64,000 nucleotides of DNA, taken from NCBI GenBank assembly GCA_000004985.1, contig GG738878.1. One strand, 5' to 3'. The DNA is from Naegleria gruberi. Taxonomy: Eukaryota. Of the stretch, positions 7,944 through 59,770 are shown one piece after another (position 1 is the first letter of the stretch; every line of letters begins with the position of its first letter). Position numbers and translations under genes: made by a program. The notes under the pieces are model-generated. The model did no database searches. It saw nothing but the letters and a program-made list of their open reading frames with translations, and had not been told where the DNA came from.

Positions 7944-8120
7944 TTTTTAAAGTTTGAAGAAAACAGATTTTAAAATTACGCTGCTTAAAATGTTTTCTTA
8001 CAGTTTCTAGCTATTTTTTAATTTCATCAAATAATATACCAATTCTTCTATATTCGATAATAATGAAGAATAAACCTATCACCTCATTCACGAATACTCT
8101 GATTAGCAAGGAGGTGGAAA

Positions 8121-8154
8121 GTGAAAACTCAGATTAGAAGCTTACAGTTTTCAC
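8121..8154. promoter_or_regulatory. Perfect 9-bp inverted repeat GTGAAAACT-N16-AGTTTTCAC in the kinase/RPL4 divergent promoter
   Basis: Directly read; lies ~125 bp upstream of the RPL4 ATG. Confidence 0.3.
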
Positions 8155-8276
8155 TTACTGTGGCATAAGTTTTTTGAAGTTTATTTTTAAAAATTGGAGG
8201 GAAAACACTTCATTGTAAAATATAAAATATAAAAGACAACCTAAAAATTTTTAAAAATTGTTTCAAAAAAAAAGAC

Positions 8277-13305: not shown

Positions 13306-13609
13306 TTTTTATTAGAAACTTAACGAATTAATTATTTATTATTAGAAAACGTGATATTAATTAATTTACAAATCATTTCTACTTTGATTTTCACAAGTAC
13401 ACTGTCCATCACATTCTCGATCATTGTTGTGAGATTTACGAATCAAAGACCATTCACGTTGATATAAAAAACATGATCAATATCTTGTGAATAATTCTTT
13501 TTGGCAATTGATCTACCTTAATATTTTTCCCTTTATATTTGTTGCTACATTTAAATTCGAATATGGAATACAAAGTTTCTAAAATAAAAATTAATTGGAA
13601 TGGAAAATT

Positions 13610-13700
13610 TGATGAGAGTGGGATTTGAACCCACGCCCTTGCGGAACACGGTATTAATAATACCTTAACGTGTCGTCTTAGACCACTCGACCATCTCACC
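13610..13700 (-). tRNA. tRNA-Leu (anticodon AAG) with putative 11-nt intron after position 37
   Basis: Reverse complement GGTGAGATGGTCGAGTGGTCTAAGACG-ACACG-TTAAGG[TATTATTAATA]C-CGTGT-long variable arm-GTGGGTTCAAATCCCAC-TCTCATC-A; Leu-type D-loop and long variable arm; canonical T-loop. Confidence 0.7.
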
Positions 13701-13813
13701 ATTGAAAAATCGAGTTTTTACTAATATAATATTTTTTGCTTAGCATTGAACTTGGAATATTCAATTTTGAAATAATAATAAAAATAAAATTAAAGTTCAT
13801 TAAGTTCAAAAAA

Positions 13814-16027: not shown

Positions 16028-17671
16028 TCAATTACTATTATCTCGTTCCAGTTTTTTGAAAATGAAAGGCAATACCACACCCTCTAAATGGTTTCGTTCT
16101 TGGAGAATGTATTGTCTCTGAGAGACGAGGTCAATATTAACTTCCAGGAATTTACCATAAAAGAAGGACCACCCTACAAATGCTCTCACTGGACTAGTAA
16201 ACACTGATGGTTTAGCATTCTCATTATAATTCAAATAGTGAGAGTTCATGATCAAGAGCTCTGGATAGGGCTTGAAAGATAGGTGGAAATATTCATAAGT
16301 CTTTTTGATTTTTGAAAAATCTGCCAAACATGCATCATAGAATGACTCTGCACTATAGAAATATTCTACAATTCCCTTCCAATCCATTGGATATCTGATA
16401 TTTTCATAAATGGAGGAGGTTTTTTCAATGAGATGAGCCATAGAATTTGTGGTAATTGGAGATTGGAATTGATTGAGCTCGCTCTCATCAGGTAGTGGAT
16501 AAGTTGGTGAAGGGAAAGGAAAGAGGCTACGATTCAATTCTTCCATCGATATTTCTCTATGTTGTCCATTCTCTCCTTTCGAGAGTAACTGATTGATTTG
16601 ATTCCACTTTTCATTGCACTCTCTTCTACTCTTCTTGCTGTATTGAGAGCCCTCAATGTGCATAATCTCAAACAATTGCTCGAAACATTTAATACTCTTA
16701 TTTTCTGCAGCCACAGAAAGCGAATCGTATACATCTCTAAAAGTTTCAAAGTGACAATACTGACTTGCTAGGGCTGCCTTTTCTCTAATACTCTCCTCAA
16801 TCTTATCCAATTTGGTATTCAAAAGTTTGTGTGTTGATAAAATCTTGTGTTTCCATACGAATGAATGTGTTGCTCCCATATCAAATAGCAAAGCACACGA
16901 ATGAGTCAAGCTCAACAAGTCCTTCCACTCTAAAAACTCGGAAACCTCAATGAATAAATCTCTGTGAAATATAATTTCAAAAACTGTCTTTTGACAATGT
17001 TTGGGCACCAATTTGTGAATTTTTGGTTGATAGGCCACTGGAAGAGTGCTTCCACGTTTTCTAGTTCTGATTTCAGCAAAATTTGTTGATGAGGTCGTTG
17101 GAGAAGAAACATCCTCAAATTGTTTTGCAATGGCTCTTCTCTTTGGAGAGGATAAACATCCAGGTCTATAATTATCATCATCGTTATTAGAATCTGAAAC
17201 AGATTGAAAGAAGAATGGAGCATTATCAGAGAATCTTCTCCCTCCCGTTGGTGAGGTTGCAACATTTAGCATATCAACACAACTCTCTGGGAATATACTG
17301 AGAGGAGAAGTGGCTTTGGATTTGTTTTTGGTTGTTGGAGTGTTGAGTTGTCCTTTCCAACTCAAACTCTTACTTTCCTCTAAGGGGTGATGATCTTCAT
17401 CCATAGAATTGGAAACTTTTATCTGAGGAAATACAGAGGTACAACTATTGGTTTTTGTTTGAATTGCTAGTGGGCTCTTACTAGGAGATGAAGAAGCAAA
17501 GGAATCTCTCAATTGTCGAATGGATTTTGGAGAAGCATAGGCTGGTATTGAATTCTTATTATTTTCAATTGATGAGGAAGAATCGATAAAGTTTGGTACA
17601 TGAATTGATTTCCTTCCAGAACTGCTGGTAGTGGAAGGAGAGGGATATGACTGTTTTTCAATTACCTCCAT
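16028..17671 (-). CDS. Ser-rich protein with F-box-like motif
   Basis: 547-aa ORF; N-terminal Ser/Thr-rich low complexity; TVFEIIFHRDLFIEVSEFLEWKDLLSLTHSCALL F-box-like. Confidence 0.5.
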   Translation of the reverse strand: MEVIEKQSYPSPSTTSSSGRKSIHVPNFIDSSSSIENNKNSIPAYASPKSIRQLRDSFASSSPSKSPLAIQTKTNSCTSVFPQIKVSNSMDEDHHPLEESKSLSWKGQLNTPTTKNKSKATSPLSIFPESCVDMLNVATSPTGGRRFSDNAPFFFQSVSDSNNDDDNYRPGCLSSPKRRAIAKQFEDVSSPTTSSTNFAEIRTRKRGSTLPVAYQPKIHKLVPKHCQKTVFEIIFHRDLFIEVSEFLEWKDLLSLTHSCALLFDMGATHSFVWKHKILSTHKLLNTKLDKIEESIREKAALASQYCHFETFRDVYDSLSVAAENKSIKCFEQLFEIMHIEGSQYSKKSRRECNEKWNQINQLLSKGENGQHREISMEELNRSLFPFPSPTYPLPDESELNQFQSPITTNSMAHLIEKTSSIYENIRYPMDWKGIVEYFYSAESFYDACLADFSKIKKTYEYFHLSFKPYPELLIMNSHYLNYNENAKPSVFTSPVRAFVGWSFFYGKFLEVNIDLVSQRQYILQERNHLEGVVLPFIFKKLERDNSN

Positions 17672-27055: not shown

Positions 27056-27127
27056 GCTGGCGTAGCTCAGTCGGTAGAGCGTTGGTCTAATAAGCCATTG
27101 GTCGCCGGTTCGATCCCGTCCGTCAGC
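27056..27127 (+). tRNA. tRNA-Ile (anticodon AAT); anticodon loop CTAATAA
   Basis: GCTGGCG-TA-GCTC-AGTCGGTA-GAGC-G-TTGGT-CTAATAA-GCCAT-TGGTC-GCCGGTTCGATCCCGTC-CGTCAGC; canonical D and T loops; one mismatch each in the anticodon stem (27:43) and T stem (50:64). Confidence 0.65.
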
Positions 27128-27295
27128 AAACATTTTATGAATTAAAACAATAATGTTTACCCTTTTAATTAAAATAAAAATTATATTCTATTTTTTGTTA
27201 AAATCTATTTCCATATTTTTTTGTCATTTAAAATAGAGAACAACTTTCCATGTTACCAATCACCAAACATCAAACATATTACAAATCAAAAAAAA

Positions 27296-45507: not shown

Positions 45508-45786
45508 TGTATTTGTTGATATAATTTTTTTTAAAAACTAACTGGTTATATTTAGTAGGTAGTTTTTATTCGAAAGTTCATAACCATAGAACAATGAACT
45601 TCAAGTTACAATTCAATTAATTTCTCAGTTTTCAAAACATCAAATGTTATTTCAATTTTGGTCGCATCTAAACGAAACCCAGAACGAAATTCGAAATTCT
45701 ATTGAGAGAATAAATAAATATTAAAAAATTCAACAATAGTTTCAGATAACAACAATTTGAATTTATCCTTTAGTATTTGAATTGAT

Positions 45787-47121
45787 TTATCCTGAAGCAC
45801 CCTTCAAACCACTTTCCAAATGATCAGCTTCACGATTTCTTCTAGTAGAATATTTATCACCAAAGTTTCTCAAATTATTAACCATTCCCTTATAATCATT
45901 CTTAGTCAATTGACCAAAAAATCCAGGAGTGGCCTTCTTAATACTTCCATATTGATGTTGGACACTGTAAGCAACTGATTGGACAGATGATGGCAAATCC
46001 TTGAAATTCTTGACAGCATTTGGATTTTTGGCAGCAGCTGCTTCATAATCTTTGGCCAAGGAGGCAAGTGACTTGTCCATAACTGCCTTATCAATGGCTT
46101 TAGCTTCAGCAGGTGATAGGGATAATGGATTCTTTGATAGGAAATTCTTGGCAGCTTGTTGTTTCAAACCAGTATATGGAGAAAGTTTATCGACTAAACT
46201 AGGTGAAAGTCCAAGAGATTTCAAACCCTTAACATTTTGTTGTCCAATATCGAAACCAGTACCAACAGTAACACCTGATTTACCAACGACAGTACCTGAC
46301 TTGGATTGTGGAACGTAACCCTTAGTAGAGAATGCTTCATTCTTAGTAAGTAAACCCTTATCAATCTTGTAACCAGAAACAGTTGCAACAGAAGCAGCAG
46401 CAGGTTGTTGAGCTAGAGCTCTATTTTTGACAGATGTTTGAATGGCAGCAGCTGTCAACTTTCCAGTGACTGCAGGTTGAGCAGCAAAAGCAGCATTAAA
46501 ACGAGCAGTTAATGAATTGACACGTGGACCCTTAACATTCACAGCAGCAGCCTTAGCCATAGCAGAGAATGCCTTTGCCATATTTGGACCAACTAATCCA
46601 GTAAATGCCTTACTCAATGTAGGACTAACTTTTGAGAATTTACTGGTAATTGAGTTGGCTAATTTGGAAAGAGAAGCACGAGCTTGAGCTGCTTTGAGAC
46701 CTGCAGTACGAGTTCTACCTGCCATTCTACCTGCAAGACCCTTATTTGATTTGGTTGATTTGGAAGATGGTCCAGATCGTCCAGTTTTACCTGATGATCT
46801 ACCATTGGATTTACCACCACTGGATCTTCCATTGGATCTACCTGATCTACCTGATCTACCTGATTGACCACTGGATCTTCCACCTCTGGAACCTCCTCTG
46901 CTACCAGAGCTACCTCCACGGCTACCACCACCTCTGGAACCACCAGAACCTCCACGACCACCACCAGAACCACCGCCACCGCCACCGCCACTGGAACCAC
47001 CCTTGTAAGAATCTGCCAATTCGACAATTTCTGCCAAGAAGGAAGAGGATGCGGAAACTGCAATGATGGACACGGAAAGAATGGCCAAACAACACAAGAT
47101 TGTGAATGAGAGTTTCTTCAT
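45787..47121 (-). CDS. Secreted protein: signal peptide + Gly/Ser/Arg-rich linker + Ala-rich region + C-terminal phage-type (GH24, T4/P22-like) lysozyme-like domain; paralog of 56377..57678
   Basis: MKKLSFTILCCLAILSVSIIAVSA signal; (G/S/R)n linker. C-terminal segments KIDKGLLTKNEAFSTKGYV...VTVGTGFDIGQ, VQSVAYSVQHQYGS...FFGQL and LRNFGDKYSTRRNREADHLESG parallel the T4L/P22 gp19 N-terminal lobe, Q-x-DAL-x-S-x-x-FN-x-G and C-terminal RRxRE motifs. Confidence 0.6.
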   Translation of the reverse strand: MKKLSFTILCCLAILSVSIIAVSASSSFLAEIVELADSYKGGSSGGGGGGGSGGGRGGSGGSRGGGSRGGSSGSRGGSRGGRSSGQSGRSGRSGRSNGRSSGGKSNGRSSGKTGRSGPSSKSTKSNKGLAGRMAGRTRTAGLKAAQARASLSKLANSITSKFSKVSPTLSKAFTGLVGPNMAKAFSAMAKAAAVNVKGPRVNSLTARFNAAFAAQPAVTGKLTAAAIQTSVKNRALAQQPAAASVATVSGYKIDKGLLTKNEAFSTKGYVPQSKSGTVVGKSGVTVGTGFDIGQQNVKGLKSLGLSPSLVDKLSPYTGLKQQAAKNFLSKNPLSLSPAEAKAIDKAVMDKSLASLAKDYEAAAAKNPNAVKNFKDLPSSVQSVAYSVQHQYGSIKKATPGFFGQLTKNDYKGMVNNLRNFGDKYSTRRNREADHLESGLKGASG

Positions 47122-47941
47122 TTCGTTTCGAATATTTTTTTTTAGATGATGAAAGAGTAACTAAATGTTTTTGAGAGTGGATTATTTTGCTGTTTGGTGG
47201 TTACTATAATGTACTCGCAGATTCCTTATTTGGATATTTTTGATTTGAAAGATAAAGTAAGATAATCAATACCGATTACAAAAAGTGAAAGATTACAATT
47301 GTAAAATATTGTAAATTGGGAGAAGGTGGAATAATTTCATTAAGATTTGTTTTATTGAGATTTTTTCAAGATATTTGTAATTTTTATTGTAAAGTGTGAA
47401 ACTGTAGTGAGTTTAGTTTTCTGGATTAGAAATGAAAATTTGAAATAATGCAATGTTTCATCCATATTTATATTGTTTATTCGAAATTTATTCTCCTTGA
47501 AACTGAAAATTATTCAAAGAAACAAAGTCATGAAACTAATCCAAACTGTAAATTGAAACTGTAAATAATTGACAAATATTACAAAAGCATCTCATATCGT
47601 ATAATTCTTCAGTGATGAGGGTTGATAACATGACGACTGCAGAATGCTGCAATTTTCCAATGGTTTGCTTTGGAAATGTCATTTTTATTCGAAACCAGCG
47701 CTTTTATGGACAAAAATGGAAAGAAACATATTTGCTTGTTGATTCATATGTTATTGGCAATGAGAGGAATACAGTCCTATCAAGAATTAGTTTCGTCCAT
47801 CTTTCGAATAACTAGGCTCAAAGATGACCGATATAAAGTGAGACTAATGCGAATTAATACGCCAATGAAAGAAACCATGTTTAAATGTACGATTCTTCAT
47901 ATTGAGATGCCCAATTCATATCAATTCACTCAACAAAAAGA

Positions 47942-48931
47942 ATGTCATCATCACTATTCGAAACCTCATCTGAAATGAAACATTCTTCCACTTTCCAACA
48001 AGAAGATTCCCAACACAACAACATGTACTATCTAAACAATACCTCAAAGACAATCCAAGAAGAACAACCTGAGGTTTTCAAATATTGGAAACATGTCAAG
48101 ATTCTTCTCAAGAACATTTTTATCCTAATCTACTTTTTCTCATCGAGTTTAATAACAAAAATTGTTACCATGTACATGGCCATTCCAAATGTTAAGATTT
48201 CTCAAGCACCTGCTCACGACATTCTTCTTTCCAACTTGACGAAACCTATTCGAATCGCCTTTACTTTATCAGAAACTATCACTGGCTTACTCGTTGTTAT
48301 TCTCATCACCTTGTCAATATTTAACAAAACTCATCGATTCTCCATCATGAGTAGGTTGCTATTCATCGTGGCGAGTATCATGAATTTGAGAGCTGTTTGT
48401 ATTGCTGTTACAACTTTCAGCGTTCCAACAATCGAATATTTGCAAACTTGTGGTCAATTGCAATCGTTGAAACCAGACGAAAGGTTTGTGAGGGCTGTTA
48501 ATATTTTTGGGTTTAGTGGAGGAGAAACGTGTGGAGATTATGTTTTTTCAGGGCATGCAACTTCGTTGAGTGTGGTTTGTTGGTTTGTTTGGTATTATTC
48601 GAATAAGGAATGGGTTGGAAGAATCTGGACGAATCTCTTGCTGATTATTTTGCATATTGTTGGATGTTTGGGAATATTGTTGGCCAAAGAACATTACACA
48701 GTTGATGTTTTACTTGCTTGCACTATTTCTCTTCTGGTTTGTCAATTGTATCATTCGTATTTGAAAGTTGCTTCGCTTGAACCACATTCGAAAGGTTTAT
48801 TCTTTTCAGTAATGGAATTTGACTTGAGTGAAGAAACTGAAAATGTGTTCGACAGCTCGATATTTGGTTATCTTTACGAAAAAATTGATGGAAACAAAAC
48901 TAATTTCGATCTAATCTCAGACAATGTATAA
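47942..48931 (+). CDS. Sphingomyelin-synthase family (SMS/SMSr-like phosphotransferase) membrane protein
   Basis: CGDYVFSGHATSLSVV and HYTVDVLLACTISLLVCQLYH motifs (SMS D3/D4) within a 6-TM core. Confidence 0.7.
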   Translation: MSSSLFETSSEMKHSSTFQQEDSQHNNMYYLNNTSKTIQEEQPEVFKYWKHVKILLKNIFILIYFFSSSLITKIVTMYMAIPNVKISQAPAHDILLSNLTKPIRIAFTLSETITGLLVVILITLSIFNKTHRFSIMSRLLFIVASIMNLRAVCIAVTTFSVPTIEYLQTCGQLQSLKPDERFVRAVNIFGFSGGETCGDYVFSGHATSLSVVCWFVWYYSNKEWVGRIWTNLLLIILHIVGCLGILLAKEHYTVDVLLACTISLLVCQLYHSYLKVASLEPHSKGLFFSVMEFDLSEETENVFDSSIFGYLYEKIDGNKTNFDLISDNV

Positions 48932-48970
48932 TACTAAACTCATTTCTAATAAAATTTATCACTAGGTTTA

Positions 48971-51702
48971 TTAAACTTTCACCTCATCAAGCTCTTGATT
49001 CTTTGCAATTGAAGATGATTTCACATTCGCATACGAAAAATCTGATTTCTGCGTAACTTTCAAATAAACTTCTTCCAAAGTTGTTTGAGAAATTCCCCAA
49101 TCTTTAATTCCTAAAGTTGAATTTTCCAAATCTGAGATTAAATCCGATAATTCTGCAAGTTGCTGCTTGGGAATGTTAAAGATAAAGTTTCCAGCACTTT
49201 CGCTTACAATATTTACATTCGAAATTCGAGAGTTGACCATTGAAATAACATGTTGCTCGTGTCCAGTGTTGGCCACAACCATGAGATTGTAACCACTTCC
49301 ATATTGGGCTTTGATTGAAAGTGAATTTCCAACACATTTCAGTTGACCATGAGCCATGATAGCAATCTTGTCAGATAAATAATCGGCTTCGTCCATGGCA
49401 TGTGTGGTAAGAATCATGGCTCTTCCTTCTTTCATTTTGTGAATTAAATTCCATGCTTTCTTTCTTGAATATGGATCCTAATGAGGTGAATAAAGAAAAC
49501 TAAAGTTGTGAATAAACTTACCAAACCAGTGGTTGGCTCATCTAAGAGAACCAACTTTGGATTACCAATACAAGCAATACAAATGGATAATCTTCTCTTC
49601 ATACCACCTGAATAAGTCTTTGTCAAGTGATGGCCAACTTTTGACAAGTCAACCGATTCCAAAAAGTTGCTAACTTGTTCAGTTCTTTGTTTTCTTGGAA
49701 CTCCTTTCAAATCTCCAAACAATTCCAAATGCTCCTCAGCTGTCAAATCGTCCCACAAAATATCATGTTGTGGACACATTCCCAATTGCTTTCGAATATC
49801 TTCCATCGAATCTCTCACATTCAATCCAGCAATGAAAGCTTCACCAGATGATTGCTGGAACAGCCCAGTCAAAATATTCATTGTGGTTGATTTACCAGCT
49901 CCATTATGGCCCAACAAACTAACACATTGATTATCTTGCACAATTAAATTCAAACCTTTGAGAGCTTTCTTCTCAGAGAAGAATTTTCTAAATTTGGCGG
50001 GAAGAATTTTCAAAGCAATTTTGGCCAAGAATGAAGAAAATGTTCTTCTCAGTGAGATGATTCTGACAATGGCATTCTGATTGAAATCACGTGCCTTGGA
50101 AAACTCATTCTTTATATCTTGAGTTTCCATTTGATGCATATCAGTTTCGTCATTTGCATCAAGTTTCGACTTGGATTTCCATCTATTAATTCCCCAATAC
50201 GAAGGATATAAGAAGAAAATTGGTGACTTTCTAACACCATTTCCATCAGAAATTACATTATCACAATACCAATACAAGACGAGAAACAATAACCCATTAA
50301 GGAAAAGTGTTAAAATTCCCAACCACGAACCAGGAACATAATCGTAAGTGTTCTTTCCAATAAATAAATCTTCGATTGTGTAACCTGGACCAGTAACGTA
50401 CTTTCTTTGTGTGGAATCGTAAACTGGCAATGCTTTTACAGCAATGTCAATGAAAACCTTGGCAAAGTTGAAAGGTGGATAGAAGGAGAAGATTACAACT
50501 ATGAGAGGAGTGATGGAAGAGGAATAGAGCATGTAGACAATGTTACTATTCGAAACTGTCAAGTTCAAAATCTGAATCATGTTAATTTGAATGTGATGTT
50601 AATGAATAGTACTTACAAAGGAAATTGCCAAAACTGTAAATCCCAAAACTAGAGCAGATTTCGATTCCTTGATAAAAGTTGATAATAGGAAAGCTAAACA
50701 AATCAAGGAAAATGTGAAACTAAAGAATAATACATAAAGAACAATAAAGTCAGTATTCAAAAAGATTGAAATTTGAAAGATCATGCCACCAATCACATTG
50801 ACCAATGAGAAAACGGCACAGATAATCAAGAATGTAATGAACCATGATAGGAAATAGGCAGATTCTTTCATTCCCATCATAATCATGGCAAATCTTAGAC
50901 GAAACTCCTTCTCAACAACCAAACTATTCAATGAAATAATCAAGACAATCATGGCTCCAATACTAAAGAAGGTTGGTCCTGAATAATTGTACAATAAAAC
51001 TTCTCCATTCTTACTTTGAGGAGGTTGTGGAAAACTCTTAAAGTCAACCTGAATTGAATTTCTAGAATCAGCAAGTTCTTGAGTTCTGCCCAAATCTTTC
51101 ATTCTCAAATAAACAATGTTATTGTCAATTAGATTTTGTAAGGAGAGGAGTGGAGTTTTCAAATCCTCTCTAGTTCTATTATAGTACATGGTATATGAAA
51201 TGGTATCAATGGTATCTAGTGGACCATTTGGAATGAATGAAATACCAAACATGGTTTGATTTTGATGAGTGTACATCCAATTTTCCATCTCACTTTTGGT
51301 TGTAAACATTTTGTAATCAGTGTCTTGTTTCAAATTGTAATCAGAAATTAACAATTCCATTACCTTCTCTCCAAATGAAATACCATTAGCAGAATAAACT
51401 AATTTGTAACAAGCTCTTCCACCATTCGGTTTGCATTCGTAAAATTTTAAAGCAATTCCATTGTCATACGATTGTTGAGTTGGCACTTGAATTCCCTTAT
51501 GAATTAGCTCAATTGGCTGATGAATTGCACTCTCACCTGAAAAGTTAGCTTGCAAAACCTCCTTCATGACCACCAAAATCACCAAAATAATAATGGGAGA
51601 CAGCAATTGCATTCCAGTAGATTTCCATCTTCTTGTATAGAGCAGGAAATTCTTCTTTAACAAAATGAGCGTTTGTTTCAACACCTCCAACAGATAATTC
51701 AT
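48971..51702 (-). CDS. Half-size ABCA-type ABC transporter (TMD-NBD), at least 3 exons: 51702..50617, 50571..49522, 49477..48971
   Basis: ABCA-style N-terminus (NYLLEVLKQTLILLKKNFLLYTRRWK) with TM1 then a large extracellular loop; Walker A GHNGAGKST, signature YSGGMKRRLS, LLDEPTTGL|DP split by a 44-nt GTAAGT intron; second intron GTAAGT...ATTCAG (50572..50616). Confidence 0.75.
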
Positions 51703-52004
51703 AATAATAGTATTGAACAAGAAAGTGTTGTTGAGACTTTTTTCTAATTGAGAGAGGAAGCATATGTTTCATTGGCACACGATTTTGAATGAGCTGTGAT
51801 TCGTAGGTGCGAACTTGTGGCAGTTAGCTGAGCTGTAAATTAGTTGGAGGTGAGAAGATCCTCCTTTTCAAACAATGTTAGAGAACGGAGAGTGCGATTG
51901 GAAGAGTCTGTTTGAACTTGTTGATAAGGGAGAAGCGAATTTGTTATTATTGTTTTTCATTAATCATTAAAAAACAAAAGTAAATCTCCAACCAATTAGA
52001 TCAT
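51703..52004. promoter_or_regulatory. Divergent shared promoter between the two half-ABCA genes
   Basis: ~300-bp spacer between head-to-head starts. Confidence 0.45.
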
Positions 52005-55000
52005 ATGAAAGAAACAAAGATTTTGGATGAGAATAGTGGTGGTGCTACTGCTACTACTACTGGCCAATCAGTGACAACTCCCATCGATTGTGATGATTTG
52101 TTAATGAAGAGTCGTGCTGGTAAGGAGTTGAATCAAGTGAGAGCATTGTTGTACAAATCATTGATGTTGCAAATGAAGCAATACAAGTAGGTTATTTCAT
52201 TGTTAATATTAGTATTCATGTATATTGTATTTTGTTCAACAAATACAGGTCAAATATTTGTCAATTGATATTCCCAGTCATTTGTTTAATGTTCATTTAC
52301 GTTTTACAAATAGTTGCAAATAGATTGATTGCAGGATTCTTTACAGGCAATGAGGGAGCTGCAGCAGTTGTTAGAATCAACTCTACATCTGTTGAACTTT
52401 CTCAACTCATGTATCAAGCAAAGATGCAAGCTCAAAACTTGACATTTAATCCTCCAGAGTCCCTCTTTTTCACCTCTGATAAGAATGACTATTTGAATAG
52501 TATTGGATTTGGTACCATGTCCTCTAATCAGTCTGGATCTAGTGGTTTCTTGGCTAATTTTTCTCCATGGTCCAGAAGTTCAGTCATGATGTTAGTGAAT
52601 GGTACCTTTGATGAGAAGGGAATGATTTCAATTCCATACTCTGTAACCTCTGCTTTTGGTAATGAAAGTACTATGGATGAAGTCATCTATGATAGAATGG
52701 GTGCTGTGGGAAAACTGAAAACTTGGATGCTGTTGGTGCCTATATTGTAAGAAAGTTGGACACCTCTGGTATCAATTACACTGTACAATTTGATTACCAT
52801 GAAAAGACTCAATTCTTTGCTGAATTCCTCTCAAAATCACCACTCACCTATATTGTTACAAGTGCTAGAGATGCTATTAGTGTTTCTCTTCAGAATTGGA
52901 TGAATGATGCCTTCCTGAAAAATCTTACTGGCTCTTTCAGAATTAGAACCTATACAGCTCAAATGACCTATGATACTCAATTAATTTCCTTCAGACTTTC
53001 TGACATGTTAGGTTCCTTCTTCTTTCCACTAATTCTTTCTCTATTATTACCAACATTTACCTTTACCATTGTTATGGAGAAGCAATACAAGTTGAGAGAA
53101 ATGATGAAATTGATGGGTATGAAGATGAGATATTACTTTTTGGTAACTTATGTATTTTTCTATGCAATGTATGCCCTCTCTGCTATTTTGTTCATCATCT
53201 TTTCTATTGCCTTTGATTTTAGATTTATAACCCAGACACATCCATTAATGTTAAGTAAGTATTCATTGCTTTTTCACATATATTTAACCAGGATACTTTA
53301 GTTTTCTTCTTCCTGTTGTGGGGAAATGTATTGATTAGTTTTTCATTCCTATTATCTTCGTTCATTGGTAAGACAATTGTAGCTACTATTGTTTCCTACT
53401 TGTTTGTTCTGATTGGACCAATGGTTGGTGTCCTTCTTGAACAAGCTCTCTATCCAAGTGCACCAGATGCAAGATATGGTCTCCTCTTATTGTTCCCTCT
53501 CCAAATTACTCACTTTGTCTTTGCTGCAACCAATTCATGTAATAACAATGCATGTTTGACAGATGTGGCTGATATTGTAAATAATGTATCTGTCCTCAGC
53601 TCACTTCTTTACATGTTGGGAGTTTCAGTGTTGTACTTCATATTGGGTCTGTACTTTGATGCCATTATTCCACAAACATTTGGTATAAGTAAACATCCAT
53701 TGTTCTTCCTGGAGTGGATGTGGAGGCCGTGTATTAAACGTCGTCTGAAGAGAGCTAAAAAGCACACTGAAAGTAAGAATCAAGTCCAACCATTTGGAGA
53801 TGAAGAAGGTGCTATTGATTACAATACCTCCGAAGTAATGGACAGTGATGTAGCTGAGGAGTTTAACAAGGTTAATCCAAGTAATATCACAGACAATGAA
53901 ATGCAAGAGCATGCTAGAAAATTGAAGGAAGAGCATGGTGTTGTCCTTTTCAATTTGGAAAAGAGTTTTGGAGGTAATAAGGCTGTTAAAGGTACCTGTC
54001 TCACTATTGGCAAATCTGAATGCTTTGGTTTGCTAGGTCTTAATGGAGCTGGTAAATCAACAACCATCTCAATGTTAGCAGGAATGTTTGGTCCAAGTTC
54101 TGGAACTGCATTTGTGTGCGGTAAAGATATTAGATATGACATGGACAGTATCCATCAAGTAATGGGCTTGACAGCACAATTTGATATTTTGTATCCTGAT
54201 TTGAGTTGTGAAGACCATTTACTCTTCTATTCCAGAATGAAGGGTGTGAAAATCAAGCACGAGAAGGAACACGTCCAATCTCTATTAAAACAAGTAGGTC
54301 TAGATAATGAAACTCTCAAAGTGAGATTCTCTCCAGCATCCAGCTCACTTTCAGGAGGTATGAAGAGAAGATTATCCATTGCCATTTCACTAATTGGTGA
54401 TCCGAAAGTAATCCTACTCGATGAGCCAACCACTGGACTGGATCCACTCTCCAAGAGACACTTGTGGGATATCATTCTCGCTCAAAAGAAGAATAGAACT
54501 GTCATTTTGACCACTCACTCCATGGAAGAAGCTGATGCCTTATGTGATCGAATGACCATCATGGTAAAAGGTTCTTTCAAATGCTTAGGTTCTGGTTTAA
54601 GATTGAAAAACAAGTTCGGAGATGGCTATTTGATGACCATCAGTTACCAACCAGAGAACCAAAACATTGCCGAGAAGTATGTCTACGATTACGTACCAGA
54701 GGCTGTGAAGGATCTGACTCTGAGTGGCATAACCATCTTCAAAATACCTCACCTTAATGCTCCTCATTCTCATCAAATAACAACAACAACAACAACAAAT
54801 CAAAACAGCAGCATAAGCCATAATAATAATAGTAGTGGGGAAAAGAATAGAACATTGGCTGGTTTGTTTAAACATATGGAAAGTGGAAAGGATCATCACG
54901 GAATTGAAGAGTGGGCTTTAAATCAAGTTTCATTAGAACAAGTCTTTTTGAATATAATTTCGAGTGATGCAAAGAGAAATCCATTGAAGGATGAATCCAA

Positions 55001-55043
55001 GTGGAAGCGATTAGCAACCATGTTCAAGCAATGTATCCATTGA
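52005..55043 (+). CDS. Half-size ABCA-type ABC transporter (TMD-NBD), at least 4 exons: 52005..52186, 52249..~52720, ~52723..53270, 53316..55043
   Basis: Intron 1 GTAGGT...ATACAG (52187..52248); TM1 then a large extracellular loop; Walker A LGLNGAGKST, signature LSGGMKRRLS, Walker B ILLDEPTTGLD; GTAAGT intron ~53271..53315; one junction near 52723 changes frame and is unresolved. Confidence 0.7.
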
Positions 55044-55305
55044 GAGACCATTCTGTGCACTGTGTAAATAATAAAATTGTGCTCATCACATGATGTATTT
55101 TATTTTAAAAAATAATTTTAATTAAAAAATGGAAATTTGGATTGGCGAATACTCCATCTTACATGGTGGTTGTAAAAACTATATCACAATATTATTACAA
55201 TGACATGGCACAATGTCCAATTTGCTTCCATTTTCACAAATCATATTTTATGCTTTTTCCGGTTGGCTTCCAATCAAACTCTAAAAAAAAAAATAACAAG
55301 ACAAT

Positions 55306-56136
55306 ATGAAGCAAACCTTTTTCATTTTGGTTGTTGCTTTGATATTAGCCTTCGTAGGAGGTTTGGTCAGCGCCGATGTGATCGATCACACCAATAGAAT
55401 TCTCCCAGCGACTACTCCATATCATATGGGTATTTTACATACTTTTGATCCATTTACTTCATCATGGTCCTTTTATTGTAATAGACCAGGTGCCGGACCT
55501 GGAACAAACGATCAATTGGGTATTGTTGTTAATATGGGAAGTGATATTAGAATAATTGGTCCTAAAGTGTATAATGATGATAGTAATTTCCAAGTTGGTA
55601 TTCAAGGGGGAGAGACTGGCAAGATTATTGATTTGGGTACTGAAGATGATGTCAGCAAAACTTATGGTTGTTCAAACTGTTTTACTGGTATTAAATTTAG
55701 TAGTGATGGAGTTGTTTCAGTTTTAGATAAGACAAAGAATTTGAAGCCAATTGACCTTACTGCCATGACAGTGGATCATGCTTCAATTAAAGTAGGTCAT
55801 ATTTACTTGGTCAAGATTAGCAATGGAAATGATGATACTGCTCTTTTTGTAAAGTTTATTGCTACCTCAGTTCTTTATGGAGCAAACAATGCTGTGGAAA
55901 CTGTAACAATGAGACATCAACCAATGTATGTTAAAATTTCACAATCAACTGGAAGAGATTGCTCAGGTCATGTAGATCTTAATTCTGTTGTGGCTCAAGC
56001 TGAAACTGGAATTAGTTTGGCTGTTATTGGATTGGTGGCTACCATTTTCATTGGTGTTGGAAATGTTGCCTTCTTAATTTATTATTTTGCATTTGCAAAG
56101 GGAAAGAGAGGTGGTGTTTATGGAACTCTCCAATAA
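55306..56136 (+). CDS. Signal-peptide protein with C-terminal TM anchor, unknown function
   Basis: MKQTFFILVVALILAFVGGLVSA signal; C-terminal hydrophobic ISLAVIGLVATIFIGVGNVAFLIYYFAFA. Confidence 0.5.
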   Translation: MKQTFFILVVALILAFVGGLVSADVIDHTNRILPATTPYHMGILHTFDPFTSSWSFYCNRPGAGPGTNDQLGIVVNMGSDIRIIGPKVYNDDSNFQVGIQGGETGKIIDLGTEDDVSKTYGCSNCFTGIKFSSDGVVSVLDKTKNLKPIDLTAMTVDHASIKVGHIYLVKISNGNDDTALFVKFIATSVLYGANNAVETVTMRHQPMYVKISQSTGRDCSGHVDLNSVVAQAETGISLAVIGLVATIFIGVGNVAFLIYYFAFAKGKRGGVYGTLQ

Positions 56137-56376
56137 CTCAATAATAATAACATTCGAATGCTTTTAATATTTCTTATTTCACCATTTTGTAATAGTGTTG
56201 GGTATCATTATTATAATCTGATTCCAATACATTATCTTGGAACATGTTAAAATACAAGAACTCATATTTCTGTCAAATTTCATTATAATCTCCACACGAT
56301 TGCAATCATTGAATGATTTTGTATGGTTTAATTTTAGCCAACTGACATCTCCAGTTAACTCATCATTCAAAAAAAT

Positions 56377-57678
56377 ATGAAAACATCTCTCTTGGTTTTA
56401 TGCACCTTGATGGTACTCTGTGTATCCATTATGGCTGTGTCTGGCTCCTTCTTGGAACAAATTGTGGAAATGTCACTTTCTGATTCTAGAAGTTTCAAGT
56501 CGGGTGGTGGTAGCTCTGGAGGAGGTAGCAAATCTGGAAGCAGTAGCAGCAGCTCTGGAAAGTCATCCAGTAAGTCATCCTCATCCTCCAGTAAGAGTAC
56601 TAGCTCTAGTAAAACCTCCACTTCAAAGAGTTATAGCAAGTCAACTGTCTCATCAAAGATGGCCTCAGCTTATTCTCAATATGCTAACAGTAGAATTGCT
56701 GGTATGAAGAATCCAGCCAGCACCATGGCTGGTCTCAAAGCTGCCAATTTGAATGCTCGTTTAAGTGCTCAACCAACTGCTACTGTCAATGGTAAATTGA
56801 CTGCTGCTGGTATCAAGGCCTCTTATCAAAATCGATTGAATACAAGAGTTGCTGCTGCCTATCAACAATATGCTCAATCCAGAATGGCTGCTGCCAAACC
56901 AACTGCTAAGCCAACCAATATTGCTGCAGCTTATCAACAATACGCCCAATCTAGAATTGCTGGTATGAAGAATCCTGCTAGCACTTTGTCTAAACCAACT
57001 GCCAAACCTGCCAATATTGCTGCTGCCTATCAACAATATGCTCAGTCCAGAATTGCTGGTTTGAAGAATCCTGCCAGTACTCTCCCAGGTAGTTTCAAGA
57101 TTGATAAGGGTTTGCTTACTGTTAATGAAGGTAAACCTGCCACTACTGGTTACGTTCCACAATCCAAGGCAGGTACTGTCATTGGTAAATCAGGTGTTAC
57201 TGTTGGTACTGGATTCGATGTTGGTCAACAAAATGTTAAGGGTTTGAAAGCTCTTGGACTTTCACCAAGTTTAGTCGACAAGCTTTCTCCATACACTGGA
57301 TTGAAGCAACAAGCAGCTAAGGACTTTTTGGCTAAGAATCCATTGTCCCTATCGCCTGCTGAAGTTGCATCCATTGATAAGGCAGTTATGGACAAGTTTT
57401 CTGCCAATTTGGCCAAAGATTATGCAGCTGCTGCTGCCAAGAATCCAACTGCTGTCAAGAATTTCAAGGATTTGCCAGCTCCTGTCCAATCAGTTGCTTA
57501 CAGTGTCTACCATCAATATGGAAGCTTCTCCAAGACTCCAAGCTTCATGAACAAGTTGGCCACCAATGATTACAATGGAATGGTTCATGAATTGAGAAAC
57601 TTTGGTGATTCTTACTCAACAAGAAGAAATCGTGAAGCTGATCATTTGGAAAGTGGTTTGAAGGCTGCTTCAGGATAA
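56377..57678 (+). CDS. Secreted protein: signal peptide + Gly/Ser-rich linker + AAYQQYAQSRIAGMKNPAST repeats + C-terminal GH24 phage-type lysozyme-like domain; paralog of 45787..47121
   Basis: MKTSLLVLCTLMVLCVSIMAVSG signal; C-terminal ~200 aa about 80% identical to the paralog (…STRRNREADHLESGLKAASG). Confidence 0.6.
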   Translation: MKTSLLVLCTLMVLCVSIMAVSGSFLEQIVEMSLSDSRSFKSGGGSSGGGSKSGSSSSSSGKSSSKSSSSSSKSTSSSKTSTSKSYSKSTVSSKMASAYSQYANSRIAGMKNPASTMAGLKAANLNARLSAQPTATVNGKLTAAGIKASYQNRLNTRVAAAYQQYAQSRMAAAKPTAKPTNIAAAYQQYAQSRIAGMKNPASTLSKPTAKPANIAAAYQQYAQSRIAGLKNPASTLPGSFKIDKGLLTVNEGKPATTGYVPQSKAGTVIGKSGVTVGTGFDVGQQNVKGLKALGLSPSLVDKLSPYTGLKQQAAKDFLAKNPLSLSPAEVASIDKAVMDKFSANLAKDYAAAAAKNPTAVKNFKDLPAPVQSVAYSVYHQYGSFSKTPSFMNKLATNDYNGMVHELRNFGDSYSTRRNREADHLESGLKAASG

Positions 57679-57774
57679 ATAAATTCTAATGTTGTTGCCA
57701 TCTCTGAACATACTGGAATATTGTCTCAAGTTTTGAATGCCTAGATTATATATTTGAGAATTATCTTGGAATAG

Positions 57775-59602
57775 TTAAAATCTCTTCCTCCTAATCAATT
57801 CAACCACCTCACTCATAAATTCCCTATCCTTGATGAGTTCTGGAGAAATAGATGTTAGAGAGCTGATTCCATGTATATTGAACAAATTCTCATCATGTTC
57901 CAACGCTGTGAGAACCACTTCCTTGTCCCTCTTAATTCTCTCATCGAACAATTGCAACAATGGGCCACTAATGGCTACAACTTGCAATGCAAATGATTTG
58001 TTGTGAAATAGTCCAGGTTGGAATAGCTTGAGTTTGAAAAGAGAGAAGGGATTTGACTTGCAAGCTTCGATAATCATATCAAAATCATCCTTGAATTTGG
58101 TCTTGTGAAGAAGATAGCCATTCTTTCTGATAGCTTCCAAGACGAAATCTCTGTTACCTGTTAGATCTGGGTGCAGGTAGCAATTTTCAGAATCTTTGGA
58201 TCCAATCGAATCAAGTACGAATTCCTTATTGAGTTGGAATGATTCGTGTGCGTATTCAAGTGCAGAGCTGTTCTGTTTCACTGCTGTTCGAATAATTTCC
58301 TCGTCCATCTTTAAATCATCACTAGCAAATTGTAAATCAGAACCTCTTCTTGCAACAGCTGTTAATACAATCTCTCTATCGCAGCGAAACCCTTCTGGTG
58401 TTACTGAGAGTGACATTCCATTCCTAACAAGGTTCATCACAACATTCCTATTCTTCATTAAAGAATCATTTATACCCTTCAAAGAGGTAATTTTGAAATT
58501 ATCTAAACAATGGTTAATAAACTCCTCGTCCTGTTTTAAATCTTTTGAAATGAAAGGAAATGCTTCCAAACTATTATTCATGGCTTCCAAAGCTATGACC
58601 TTATCTGATTTTAGAGATTGAGAAGCAAACTTTAACGATCCACCATTAGACTTAACTGCCTCTAAAACAATCTCCCTATCACTCCTTAACAGATCACTTG
58701 CATGATTCAAGTCATTTCCACAAGCTCTGACACATTTCAATACCAAATCTCTGTCCTCTCTGGCATCATCATTAAAGTAATCCAAACATCCACTTAATTC
58801 TACTCCAATACATGCTTCCATCACTTCCCTATCAGAGAAAACCTCAAATGGTAATTGATTAAGAGCAATCTTTGTTCCTTTCAAGGCTTCCAAAATCACA
58901 AATTTATCATTTTGCAAATCATCATCCAGCATTATGTAATTTCTAAAGTTATTCCTCACAGCTGTCAATATTAATTCTCTATCACTAACCAACAATTCAT
59001 CACTGATATACTCTGTAATAGAATGGCCAGTTTGAGCTGCAACCATCAACAATTCCCTATCATTGGAAATTAATTCGGAATAATCTTGCTCTTCTTCATC
59101 AGTGCGATGAGAGGATGGCAACGATTCCAAATAATTAAGCAATATATTAATACTCAAACCTCGCCTAATAGCTTGCAAGAATAATTCTCTACTACTTGGT
59201 GTTGTATTCATCAAATAATCTTCATACAAGACACTTAATTTAGAGAGAAACTTTTCCGATTTGAAACACAATACATCATCATTACCTTCATCACTTGTCT
59301 GCATTGTAGAATAATAGCTTGCACCAAAAATCAAAGGATTCCTTGATAAATTCATCATCCAAATAATCAAAGCAATCTAAATTGATGGTGGTAATGGCTT
59401 GAATAATCTTCTCTCGATCGGAAATGAATTTTACAAGTGATGGATATGAAGAAAGAGTTTTTAAGAGTTTGTTTTCGAGAATTTCAGTTTGATATTTGAA
59501 TTGCAGTAAATCTGAGGTTGATGATTGGAAATGATCGAGTAAAATTACGACTAGATGTTCCTTCATTTTTTTTGTCTTTTCAATATATTGATTTAGATGC
59601 AT
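57775..59602 (-). CDS. DUF4116-repeat protein (two ORFs, 59291..59602 and 57775..59370, overlapping in different frames)
   Basis: ~10 tandem ~38-aa repeats of the REIVLxAVxxNGxxLxFASxxLKxDxE form. Confidence 0.55.
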
Positions 59603-59697
59603 CTGTTACTCATCCGTAAGGTTTAAGTTGTTTCCTTAATAAATAAACATTGTTATTACATACTATATCATTGCATATTTCACAAATTTGATGTGAG

Positions 59698-59770
59698 CGC
59701 CGTTAGATCAGTTGGTTAGATCGTCAGCTTTACACGCTGAAGGTCAAGGGTTCGACTCCCTTACGGCGTA
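59698..59770 (+). tRNA. tRNA-Val (anticodon TAC)
   Basis: GCGCCGT-TA-GATC-AGTTGGTTA-GATC-G-TCAGC-TTTACAC-GCTGA-AGGTC-AAGGGTTCGACTCCCTT-ACGGCGT-A; G1:U72 wobble. Confidence 0.8.

Follow-up and report, generated by a model that had tools for sequence, protein, structure and literature searches.

Two inverted paralogous genes for putative secreted pesticin-type muramidases in Naegleria gruberi

A 64-kb stretch of the Naegleria gruberi NEG-M genome (hereafter, the window) contains two inverted paralogous genes whose products are most likely pesticin-type N-acetylmuramidases of the Pfam family PF16754, with a T4-lysozyme fold and predicted enzymatic activity. Taken as a whole, the data make it likely that these are secreted or phagosomal enzymes, horizontally acquired and duplicated, that would aid the digestion of bacterial prey. 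NCBI and UniProt already list both proteins as ‘pesticin domain protein’, so that the annotation itself is not new. Our literature search found no paper mentioning either Naegleria protein.

The two genes and their catalytic domains

The coordinates and strands assigned to the two open reading frames in the initial annotation were reproduced exactly (Table 1). The copy 1 protein is an exact database match to XP_002675482.1 / EFC42738.1 / D2VKR0 of N. gruberi. The public model of copy 2 (XP_002675382.1 / EFC42638.1 / D2VKR5) has 422 aa and begins at the internal Met12 (56410).

Table 1. Positions of the two genes and their parts in the window
Feature	Position	Strand	Description and basis
Copy 1	45787..47121	-	444 aa, single exon, ATG to stop without interruption; ORF list, PF16754 E=1.3e-70
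Copy 1 signal peptide, residues 1-24 (MKKLSFTILCCLAILSVSIIAVSA)	47050..47121	-	Core mean Kyte-Doolittle 2.63, small -3/-1 residues; putative cleavage site
Copy 1 linker, residues 25-247	46381..47049	-	Short acidic motif SFLAEIVE, then Gly/Ser/Arg-rich, then Ala/Lys-rich
Copy 1 pesticin-type muramidase domain, residues 248-444 + stop	45787..46380	-	Pfam, phmmer, model, alignment
Copy 1 catalytic codons	E262 46336-46338; T285 46267-46269; D291 46249-46251	-
Copy 2	56377..57678	+	433 aa from first ATG, single exon, uninterrupted to stop; ORF list, PF16754 E=7.2e-69
Copy 2 signal peptide, residues 1-23 (MKTSLLVLCTLMVLCVSIMAVSG)	56377..56445	+	Alignment with copy 1 signal peptide starts at Met1
Copy 2 linker, residues 24-236	56446..57084	+	SFLEQIVE motif, then Ser/Lys-rich stretch, then Ala/Gln-rich repeats
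Four copies of a ~90-nt repeat in copy 2 linker	56635..57081	+	Encodes (A)AAYQQYAQSRIAG(M/L)KNPAST units; 61-100% identity to reference copy (repeat search, family D1)
Copy 2 pesticin-type muramidase domain, residues 237-433 + stop	57085..57678	+	Pfam, alignment
Copy 2 catalytic codons	E251 57127-57129; T275 57199-57201; D281 57217-57219	+
Inverted repeat, left arm	45775..46373	.	Catalytic domain only plus 12 nt past stop
Inverted repeat, right arm	57092..57690	.	Partner of 45775-46373

A C-terminal domain of ~200 aa had been proposed for each protein, and we found one of about 197 aa. The hmmscan analysis showed that it covers the whole PF16754 profile (Pesticin C-terminal, positions 1-156/156) in both copies. 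In a phmmer search against PDB sequences, pesticin was the sole match (E=1e-13). The AF2 model of the domain had a pLDDT of 93.6, and Foldseek against the PDB placed it on Yersinia pesticin with a TM of 0.84, an rmsd of 2.5 Å and E=5e-11.

Patzer et al. (2012, PMC3390615) found the pesticin mutants E178A, T201A and D207A to have lost activity, and reported strict conservation of E178, P187, T201, D207 and Q301 across the pesticin family. In the phmmer alignment, E262, P271, T285, D291, Q390, R427 and R428 of copy 1 align with E178, P187, T201, D207, Q301, R339 and R340 of pesticin (Pst), and both copies retain the essential Glu/Thr/Asp together with the conserved Pro, Gln and Arg-Arg. The initial annotation had placed the Lys of ‘IDKG’ at the position of T4 lysozyme (T4L) Glu11 and had left the catalytic status open. 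That alignment was out of register: the ‘NE’ flagged nearby holds the true catalytic Glu equivalent (E262 in copy 1, E251 in copy 2), and no member of the Glu, Thr, Asp, Pro and Gln set is missing. Given that the family, the fold and these residues are common to the Naegleria proteins and the activity domain of Pst from Yersinia pestis (PDB 4AQN/4EPF), the same chemistry would be expected, namely muramidase action on the glycan strand of peptidoglycan, although the identity between the two domains is only about 25%.

Signal peptides and polycationic linkers

Each protein begins with a secretion signal, as had been suggested, which we judged by eye and by hydropathy. Both N-termini consist of a basic n-region followed by a hydrophobic core of ~18 residues (mean Kyte-Doolittle 2.5-2.6), with small residues at -3/-1 (AVSA/SS in copy 1 and AVSG/SF in copy 2, the slash marking the cleavage site predicted in the same manner). 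We infer that both proteins enter the secretory pathway, with an extracellular or phagolysosomal final site.

The low-complexity linker described earlier is present in both proteins. It is dominated by Gly, Ser and Arg in copy 1 and by Ser and Lys in copy 2, and it continues into an Ala-rich stretch. Residues 41-247 of copy 1 and 42-236 of copy 2 contain no Asp or Glu and have net charges of +34 and +25, respectively; the mature proteins reach +46 (pI 10.8) and +32 (pI 10.1). The linkers of the two copies have diverged almost past alignment (dN about 1.0). In the full-length model, whose input alignment held only 2 sequences, the pLDDT was below 50 over residues 23-280, and the acid-free polycationic linker of ~200 aa is probably disordered. 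This cationic segment may have a role in binding anionic bacterial envelopes.

Duplication, origin and alternative readings

The two copies match each other in BLASTP with E=1e-108, and their domains are 80% identical. At the DNA level, the arms of the inverted repeat are 84.6% identical over 603 nt by blastn, and a repeat search gave 87-88% (I1 and I2). These results confirm the inverted paralogous pair of the initial annotation. The dN/dS of the domain between the copies is 0.36, and the domain is under purifying selection.

We also conducted an exhaustive HMMER scan of 1.84 billion representative sequences, which gave 1804 matches; besides the two proteins of the window, none was above 48% identity. 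The nearest nameable relatives are bacterial (Anabaena, Pseudomonas, Marinomonas, Glaciecola, Shewanella, Bdellovibrionota and others) or phage, and phrog_24780 was matched with E=8e-43. The view that this lysozyme family is essentially one of bacteria and phages stands, with PF16754 as the family. No further homolog from Naegleria or other Heterolobosea was found in the databases searched, whose coverage of these genomes is uncertain. In the NJ tree, any sister group of the Naegleria pair was supported at 12% or less, too little to nest the pair within bacteria or to single out a donor lineage. The donor was most likely a bacterium or phage, and the genes would reflect an old horizontal transfer and a subsequent duplication rather than contamination. 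The prokaryotic and phage relatives, the host-like codon usage and the paralogous copies all support the acquisition and duplication that had been proposed.

We propose that the catalytic domain was gained horizontally from a bacterium or phage and inserted into the nuclear genome, that it acquired a signal peptide of eukaryotic type together with a long polycationic, acid-free linker, and that a later duplication produced the second copy in inverted orientation. The proteins would travel via the secretory pathway to the cell exterior or the phagolysosomal lumen, where the domain would cut the MurNAc-GlcNAc beta-1,4 bonds of bacterial peptidoglycan through the Glu/Thr/Asp centre defined in pesticin and could thereby help the bacterivorous amoeba to kill or digest its prey. 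The most likely physiological role would be that of a muramidase, either secreted or phagosomal, that attacks the peptidoglycan of prey.

The initial annotation had assigned the domain to the GH24 phage lysozymes. Its broader part stands, in that the domain is a homolog of phage-type lysozymes with the T4 fold (Pfam E=1e-70, far beyond chance), but the family is PF16754 and not GH24/PF00959. The proposed Pfam check for PF00959 gave no hmmscan match in either protein, even at E<=10, against 237 bits for PF16754. The superposition on T4 lysozyme was likewise only distant, with TM values of 0.45-0.56 and E of about 1e-3 for T4L and GH24 endolysins in Foldseek, far from the 0.84 for pesticin. Pesticin and T4L share 13% identity, and T4L lacks a functionally conserved counterpart of Asp207 (PMC3390615). 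Therefore, a true GH24/PF00959 lysozyme of T4, P22 or P21 type seems very improbable, in spite of the common overall fold, the structural equivalence of the pesticin Glu and Thr to T4L Glu11 and Thr26 (PMC3390615), and the name ‘GH24 family phage-related lysozyme’ that one JGI source gives to related metagenomic proteins. Contamination from bacteria or phages, or an error of assembly, would explain why both genes are intronless and why every non-self relative at 40-48% identity is prokaryotic or phage. However, we can practically dismiss it. Matches of the window are to N. gruberi proteins whose records place them on a contig of 395 kb, and the copies lie among eukaryotic genes (LRR, PAP2_C, ABCA, DUF4116 and tubulin), of which the flanking ABCA gene has a 44-nt spliceosomal GTAAGT...TAG intron whose removal restores the LLDEPTTGLDPYSRK motif. 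The GC3 values of the two copies (0.25 and 0.33) are within the host range of 0.24-0.36, and the genuinely eukaryotic surroundings that had been claimed are thus borne out. In addition, the bacterial homologs lack the signal peptide of eukaryotic type and the low-complexity linker that each copy carries, the copies have diverged in situ, and no bacterial sequence exceeds 48% identity.

It is also unlikely that the proteins are inactive or repurposed, whether as a peptidoglycan sensor or lectin or by acting on an endogenous glycan, such as the cyst wall in encystment or excystment. Lysozyme folds have repeatedly been recruited to non-catalytic roles, the activity of the present domain is a prediction, its dN/dS indicates only moderate constraint, and the polycationic linker is unlike any in characterised pesticin-family enzymes. 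On the other hand, both copies keep E, T, D, P and Q, that is, all residues whose mutation inactivates or weakens pesticin, and Naegleria is not known to have a muramic-acid polymer. In hemichordates, the pesticin domain occurs fused to Amidase_2, another peptidoglycan hydrolase, which suggests peptidoglycan as the target in eukaryotes. Somewhat less doubtful is a mainly extracellular weapon, in which the polycationic linker would replace the receptor-binding and translocation module of a bacteriocin by disrupting the Gram-negative outer membrane. The proteins would then be a natural analogue of engineered polycation-endolysin fusions; cationic tags have been engineered onto lysins for Gram-negatives. 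Both proteins carry a signal peptide but lack a membrane anchor, and the ~200 aa without Asp or Glu are strongly basic in both. Pesticin requires its N-terminal module for crossing the outer membrane, and its isolated activity domain lyses cells upon reaching the periplasm and kills only there (PMC3390615). However, this reading is reached purely by inference, and Ser/Gly/Lys/Arg low-complexity linkers are common in secreted protist proteins, where they may be spacers or glycosylation regions. Moreover, the divergence of the linkers argues against a sequence-specific function, though their charge is conserved.

Comparison with known systems

The Naegleria proteins differ from Pst in having the signal peptide and polycationic linker instead of the N-terminal TonB-box/translocation domain and the FyuA receptor-binding domain and, unlike Pst, they are products of nuclear genes of a eukaryote. 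Beside neither copy did a Pfam domain or other clue point to an immunity gene. The catalytic domain family is also common to the pesticin-domain T6SS effectors, such as V. fluvialis TssI2, whose muramidase activity has been measured (PMC9620997), and those of the V. cholerae VgrG3 type. These effectors are delivered as extensions at the C-terminus of VgrG spikes, each with a partner immunity protein, whereas the Naegleria proteins show neither feature.

A similar transfer from bacteria or phages to eukaryotes, followed by duplication, is known for eukaryotic GH25 lysozymes (Metcalf et al. 2014, PMC4241558) and for the GH24 phage-type lysozymes of bivalves, for which antibacterial activity has been reported (PMC5303276). 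The family acquired in Naegleria is PF16754 rather than GH25 or GH24, and its genes have no introns, whereas the bivalve genes gained them. Nuclear PF16754 genes, some with signal peptides, also occur in the enteropneust hemichordates Saccoglossus and Glandiceps and in the rotifer Brachionus. Their domains are 32-39% identical to the Naegleria domain and occur in different architectures, in which 3-4 of them follow in tandem or the domain is joined to WSC, Lipase or Amidase_2. Because these sequences grouped with Naegleria in 0 of 200 NJ replicates, the two sets of genes are probably separate acquisitions.

The closest sequence relatives are stand-alone proteobacterial ‘pesticin C-terminus-like muramidases’ and pesticin-type phage lysozymes (33-48% identity), which share the C-terminal motif ELRNFGDxYxTRRNREAD with the Naegleria pair. 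These proteins mostly consist of the domain by itself, 180-200 aa in length, or carry it joined to PG_binding_1, LysM or large toxin scaffolds, and none has the combination of signal peptide and linker seen in Naegleria. One phage member is NVP1154O_32 of Vibrio phage 1.154.O (phrog_24780). This phage gene adjoins small TM-helix genes, an arrangement that resembles an endolysin in a lysis cassette.

Two paralogous genes with a pesticin-type domain

Both genes lie at the positions and on the strands that the initial annotation had assigned to them, and they are paralogous, as it had claimed: BLASTP aligned the two proteins at E=1e-108, and their last ~197 residues are 80% identical. The public model of copy 2 (a 'pesticin domain-containing protein' of 422 aa) takes Met12 (56410), inside the ORF, as its first residue and thereby cuts away half of the signal peptide (56377-56445). 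The ATG at 56377 adds MKTSLLVLCTL upstream of the public start and gives MKTSLLVLCTLMVLCVSIMAVSG, which matches the signal peptide of copy 1. Because the added residues complete a signal peptide that aligns with copy 1 from Met1, the longer sequence model is probably correct and the annotated start wrong.

Features of the pesticin-type gene pair and its neighbourhood
Feature	Coordinates	Strand	Remarks
Copy 1	45787-47121	-	444 aa; identical to XP_002675482.1 / EFC42738.1 / D2VKR0, 'pesticin domain protein'
Copy 2	56377-57678	+	433-aa ORF; corresponds to XP_002675382.1 / EFC42638.1 / D2VKR5
ABCA-type half-transporter gene	48971-51720	-	between the copies; divergently transcribed from the next
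ABCA-type half-transporter gene	52232-55043	+	between the copies; divergently transcribed from the previous
NAEGRDRAFT_80343	55306-56136	+	276-aa predicted protein directly upstream of copy 2; no Pfam match
DUF4116 ORF	57775-59370	-	DUF4116 repeats, 8 or more (E=2e-84); convergent with copy 2
tRNA gene	13609-13701	-	93 nt; anticodon unassigned by ARAGORN
tRNA-Ile(AAT)	27056-27128	+
tRNA-Val(TAC)	59697-59770	+
547-aa N. gruberi protein	16028-17671	-

In both copies, composition and hydropathy predict that the first 23-24 residues are a signal peptide: the n-region is basic, the core is strongly hydrophobic, and positions -3 and -1 hold small residues. The signal peptide is followed by a short acidic motif conserved between the copies, SFL(A/E)(E/Q)IVE, and by a linker of ~200 residues, which in copy 1 is Gly/Ser/Arg-rich and then Ala/Lys-rich, and in copy 2 is Ser/Lys-rich and then contains four repeats of (A)AAYQQYAQSRIAGxKNPAST that come from a 90-nt repeat family. 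Not a single Asp or Glu occurs across the 207 linker residues of copy 1 or the 195 of copy 2, whose net charges are +34 and +25, respectively. The mature proteins have net charges of +46 and +32 and pI values of 10.8 and 10.1, and contain neither Cys nor N-glycosylation sequons. No Pfam domain was found by hmmscan in the N-terminal half of either protein. In a full-length AlphaFold model, residues 23-280 had pLDDT values below 50; the N-terminal linker is probably disordered, and the low pLDDT is weak evidence of this because the alignment held 2 sequences.

The C-terminal domains had been described as GH24 (T4/P22-type) lysozyme-like, with a search against Pfam PF00959 and a superposition on T4 lysozyme (T4L) proposed as checks. 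In hmmscan searches, neither protein matched PF00959 (Phage_lysozyme), even at E<=10, and both instead matched PF16754 ('Pesticin: bacterial toxin homologue of phage lysozyme, C-term') over profile positions 1-156 of 156, with E-values of 1.3e-70 for copy 1 and 7.2e-69 for copy 2 (bit scores 236.7 and 231.1; cut-off 25.8). The only significant matches in a PDB sequence search were entries for pesticin (Pst), the bacteriocin of Yersinia pestis (E=1e-13), and the similarity was limited to Pst residues 178-347. A PHROG profile of pesticin-type phage lysozymes, phrog_24780, was also matched (E=7.7e-43; profile positions 3-178 of 181), and an NCBIfam profile search gave nothing meaningful.

We then compared structures, using an AlphaFold (AF2) model of the copy 1 domain built from 19 homologs (mean pLDDT 93.6, pTM 0.84). 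The model has the two-lobed, mainly alpha-helical fold of T4L with a small beta-sheet at the active site. Foldseek aligned it to pesticin (4EPF) with a TM-score of 0.84 and an rmsd of 2.5 Å over 192 columns, whereas matches to T4L and GH24 endolysins were well below this (TM 0.45-0.56, rmsd 5-7 Å, E ~1e-3), so that the superposition on T4L recovered the general fold. In a viral structure library, phage 'pesticin domain' proteins ranked first (TM up to 0.84), above ordinary endolysins. In addition, the catalytic residues of both copies occur in the order Glu...Thr...Asp, as in pesticin and unlike the Glu11-Asp20-Thr26 of T4L, in which the Asp lies between. By profile match, predicted fold and catalytic residues, both proteins are thus members of PF16754. 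They are not members of GH24/PF00959, because the profile search and the catalytic arrangement both speak against it; what stands of the earlier description is a phage-related lysozyme homolog with a T4-type fold.

Pesticin is a muramidase (Patzer et al. 2012, PMC3390615). Its E178A, T201A and D207A mutants are inactive and its P187A and Q301A mutants are ~10-fold weaker, and these five residues are strictly conserved among pesticin homologs (PMC3390615); the mutant data also draw on the titles of PDB entries. The HMMER alignment places E262, P271, T285, D291 and Q390 of copy 1 on Pst E178, P187, T201, D207 and Q301, and R427 and R428 on Pst R339 and R340. The equivalents in copy 2, read directly from the codons, are E251, P261, T275, D281, Q380, R416 and R417, and the position of Pst Lys341 is Asn in both copies. 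In a family alignment of 19 sequences, the Thr and Asp are invariant, and the Glu is present in 17 and replaced by Asp in the other two. The family follows the pattern ID-x2-F/L-x4-E, in which the catalytic Glu is the 'NE' residue. The earlier suggestion that the Glu11 position is occupied by Lys ('IDKG') was therefore an error of register, and the catalytic status left open on that ground can be settled at the level of residues, since Glu, Thr, Asp, Pro and Gln are all kept in both copies. Between the copies, the domain has a dN/dS of 0.36 (dN 0.13, dS 0.37), which indicates purifying selection on the coding sequence of both.

Origin of the genes and their residence in a eukaryotic genome

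To characterize the family, we searched 1.84 billion cluster representatives exhaustively with HMMER and recovered 1804 members at E<=1e-3. Only the two proteins described here exceeded 50% identity, and all others were at or below 48%. Where the sources of these relatives could be named they were bacteria or phages, with a few eukaryotes (hemichordates and a rotifer), in agreement with the earlier statement that the family is essentially bacterial and phage. The bacterial near neighbours include an Anabaena 'pesticin C-terminus-like muramidase', many Pseudomonas proteins of ~185 aa, and proteins from Marinomonas, Glaciecola, Shewanella, Alteromonadaceae, Rhodospirillales and Bdellovibrionota. 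A motif-alignment scan of genome contigs gave 25 bacterial loci, none above 44% identity, and 28 phage genomes (with Vibrio, Pelagibacter and Pseudoalteromonas hosts) encode relatives with 33-37% identity. Vibrio phage 1.154.O carries the gene under the annotation 'lysozyme', with two small overlapping TM-helix genes downstream, an arrangement that resembles a lysis cassette. A published survey of the family lists 473 proteins, 439 from Proteobacteria and 16 from Caudoviricetes, and eukaryotes are not mentioned in the portion of its text available to us (PMC9620997).

One of the top homologs (P0001) has a plainly bacterial neighbourhood on its contig, L001. There, at 8001-9247, the 202-aa pesticin-like gene and the 213-aa gene downstream of it share 4 nt; the latter lacks a Pfam match and is a candidate immunity partner, of which no counterpart was seen beside the Naegleria copies. 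Sequence, HMMER and metagenome searches of the databases used returned no other Naegleria or heterolobosean homolog, and motifs shared by the two copies had no match in a metagenome scan. A degenerate DNA pattern for FGDxYxTRRNREADH hit two metagenome contigs (L029 and L030), of which L029 has 61% GC and is bacterial- or phage-like.

We also constructed a neighbor-joining (NJ) tree of 197 domains, as a phylogeny had been among the checks proposed. It recovered the Naegleria pair in 200 of 200 bootstraps; every deeper node had a support of 12% or less, so that the tree left the sister group unplaced and spoke neither for nor against a nesting of the pair among bacteria and phages.

The only eukaryotic matches beyond Naegleria in our searches came from hemichordates and a rotifer. 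Saccoglossus kowalevskii has proteins with four tandem pesticin domains and others with three pesticin and two WSC domains. Glandiceps talaboti combines the domain with Lipase and WSC (Pesticin+Lipase+WSC) or with a PGRP-like amidase (Pesticin+Amidase_2), in proteins recorded on contigs of ~25 Mb. A 'pesticin domain' protein of 246 aa comes from the rotifer Brachionus plicatilis. The hemichordate domains cluster together in the NJ tree, and because they formed a tight clade with Naegleria in 0 of 200 bootstraps, separate acquisitions by the two lineages appear likely from these sequences.

Bacterial contamination of the assembly would also explain relatives of this kind, and an inspection of the flanking genes had been suggested for this reason. 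The neighbours, however, are eukaryotic by their Pfam domains (LRR, PAP2_C, two ABCA half-transporters, DUF4116 and tubulin), and five ORFs of the window, which is nuclear DNA of the amoeboflagellate N. gruberi (strain NEG-M), match N. gruberi proteins from one 395-kb contig exactly. The adjacent ABCA gene contains a 44-nt GTAAGT...TAG intron of spliceosomal type (49478-49521), the excision of which restores the canonical LLDEPTTGLDPYSRK motif. Furthermore, GC3 is 0.25 and 0.33 in the two copies and 0.24-0.36 in 11 neighbouring ORFs. The eukaryotic flanks, the intron next door and the host-like GC3 count against contamination. Together with the bacterial and phage identity of the nearest named relatives and the pairing of the copies, they agree with the horizontal acquisition and later duplication proposed in the initial annotation, and we conclude that an old, ameliorated transfer from a bacterium or phage, followed by duplication, is most likely. 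This scenario parallels the transfers of GH25 lysozymes (PMC4241558) and the co-option of GH24 phage lysozymes by bivalves (PMC5303276).

We found no paper that ties pesticin to Naegleria, to these accessions or to hemichordates. In the accessible parts of the Naegleria pangenome paper, the 'lysozyme' orthogroups are a different family, and both protein IDs are absent from its supplements.

Divergence of the copies and proposed function

The copies are divergently oriented, with ~9.3 kb between them. A large inverted block duplication that included the ABCA genes was considered and rejected, as the repeat spans no more than ~600 bp of the pesticin domain: at the DNA level, the copies resemble each other only over 45775-46373 and 57092-57690 (84.6% over 603 nt), from a point a few bases from the domain boundary to 12 nt beyond the stop codon. 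The two ABCA proteins are ~36% identical in their best segment, because of which their genes are regarded, by sequence, as old paralogs; their DNA likeness consists of two short patches in the nucleotide-binding domain. The other two genes between the copies are unrelated. Synonymous divergence per site is ~0.29 in the domain versus ~0.78 (saturated) in the 32 alignable signal-peptide codons. Given this difference and the position of the repeat edge at the domain boundary, the sequences suggest gene conversion, or a more recent exchange that involved the catalytic domain alone (the 3' 600 bp).

In predicted architecture, the Naegleria proteins are neither bacteriocin-like nor T6SS-effector-like. 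The Pst bacteriocin carries an N-terminal TonB-box/translocation domain and a FyuA receptor-binding domain, which both copies lack; upstream of the activity domain they have a signal peptide and a low-complexity linker instead. T6SS evolved-VgrG effectors are fused to VgrG, PAAR or Rhs modules and have an immunity gene downstream, whereas the Naegleria proteins have no delivery modules and lie in a eukaryotic setting. The phage homolog has a setting like that of a lysis cassette, in which holin- or spanin-like small TM genes would be expected, whereas the Naegleria genes sit among eukaryotic genes. Next to the copies are genes for a PAP2_C protein and for the 276-aa protein without a Pfam match. 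A eukaryote without peptidoglycan would need no immunity gene such as pim.

Based on family, predicted fold and residues, muramidase activity is to be expected if the Naegleria domains are active. We propose that the signal peptide would direct the protein into the ER, from which it could be delivered to the medium or to the phagolysosomal lumen. There, the domain would hydrolyse the MurNAc-GlcNAc beta-1,4 bond of prey peptidoglycan, with the Glu as general acid and the Thr and Asp positioning water, as has been proposed for pesticin and T4L. By analogy, the fusion of a pesticin domain to a PGRP-type amidase in a hemichordate supports peptidoglycan as the target in eukaryotes. Pesticin requires its receptor-binding and translocation module to reach the periplasm, and its isolated activity domain lyses cells once inside (PMC3390615). 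In Naegleria, access to the substrate may be provided by other membrane-damaging factors of the phagosome or, more speculatively, by the polycationic linker, which might bind and perturb anionic envelopes.

We give a small chance to a wider, joint reading, in which the linker is a functional delivery module and the pesticin domain entered at least three eukaryotic lineages independently; these would appear to be Naegleria, enteropneust hemichordates and a rotifer. The linker would bind and destabilise anionic envelopes of bacteria (LPS, teichoic acids), and the muramidase would reach peptidoglycan from outside. The charge of the linker has been kept in both paralogs despite their diverged sequences. 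If it is true, the linker would functionally replace the receptor-binding and translocation domains of pesticin, and the proteins would be a natural eukaryotic counterpart of engineered polycation-endolysin fusions. If the independent entries are true, the pesticin domain would be a second lysozyme family with recurrent cross-domain transfer.

Part of this is already known: the pesticin domain is annotated publicly, lysozyme transfer into bacterivores is an established theme, and no expectation for a bacterivore is overturned. What deserves attention is the unstudied presence of pesticin-type lysozymes in several eukaryotic lineages, the acid-free, charge-conserved linker and the apparent gene conversion of the domain. 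Known antibacterial enzymes that eukaryotes took from bacteria or phages include the Tae/Dae amidases beside the GH25 lysozymes and the GH24 lysozymes of bivalves, and pesticin lysozymes would join this short list if the proteins are active. They would then also be a defined, testable component of the degradation of bacterial prey by a free-living amoeba. A tail that is conserved in charge and divergent in sequence is a natural experiment on how a lysin can reach peptidoglycan when no bacteriocin uptake module is present, and such access is relevant to the design of enzybiotics against Gram-negative bacteria.

Other features of the neighbourhood

NAEGRDRAFT_80343 carries a signal-like segment at its N terminus and a hydrophobic one at its C terminus, and its 90%-identity cluster includes a sequence from an ENA metagenome contig. 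On the other side of copy 2, the stop codons of the DUF4116 ORF and of copy 2 are only ~100 nt apart. The 93-nt tRNA gene probably contains an intron. Finally, the 547-aa protein falls into one 90%-identity cluster with a 54-aa 'hypothetical protein [Methanoregula sp.]' from a MAG (WP_300218986.1); a piece of eukaryotic sequence binned by mistake with an archaeal genome, or very strong conservation of the segment, may account for this.
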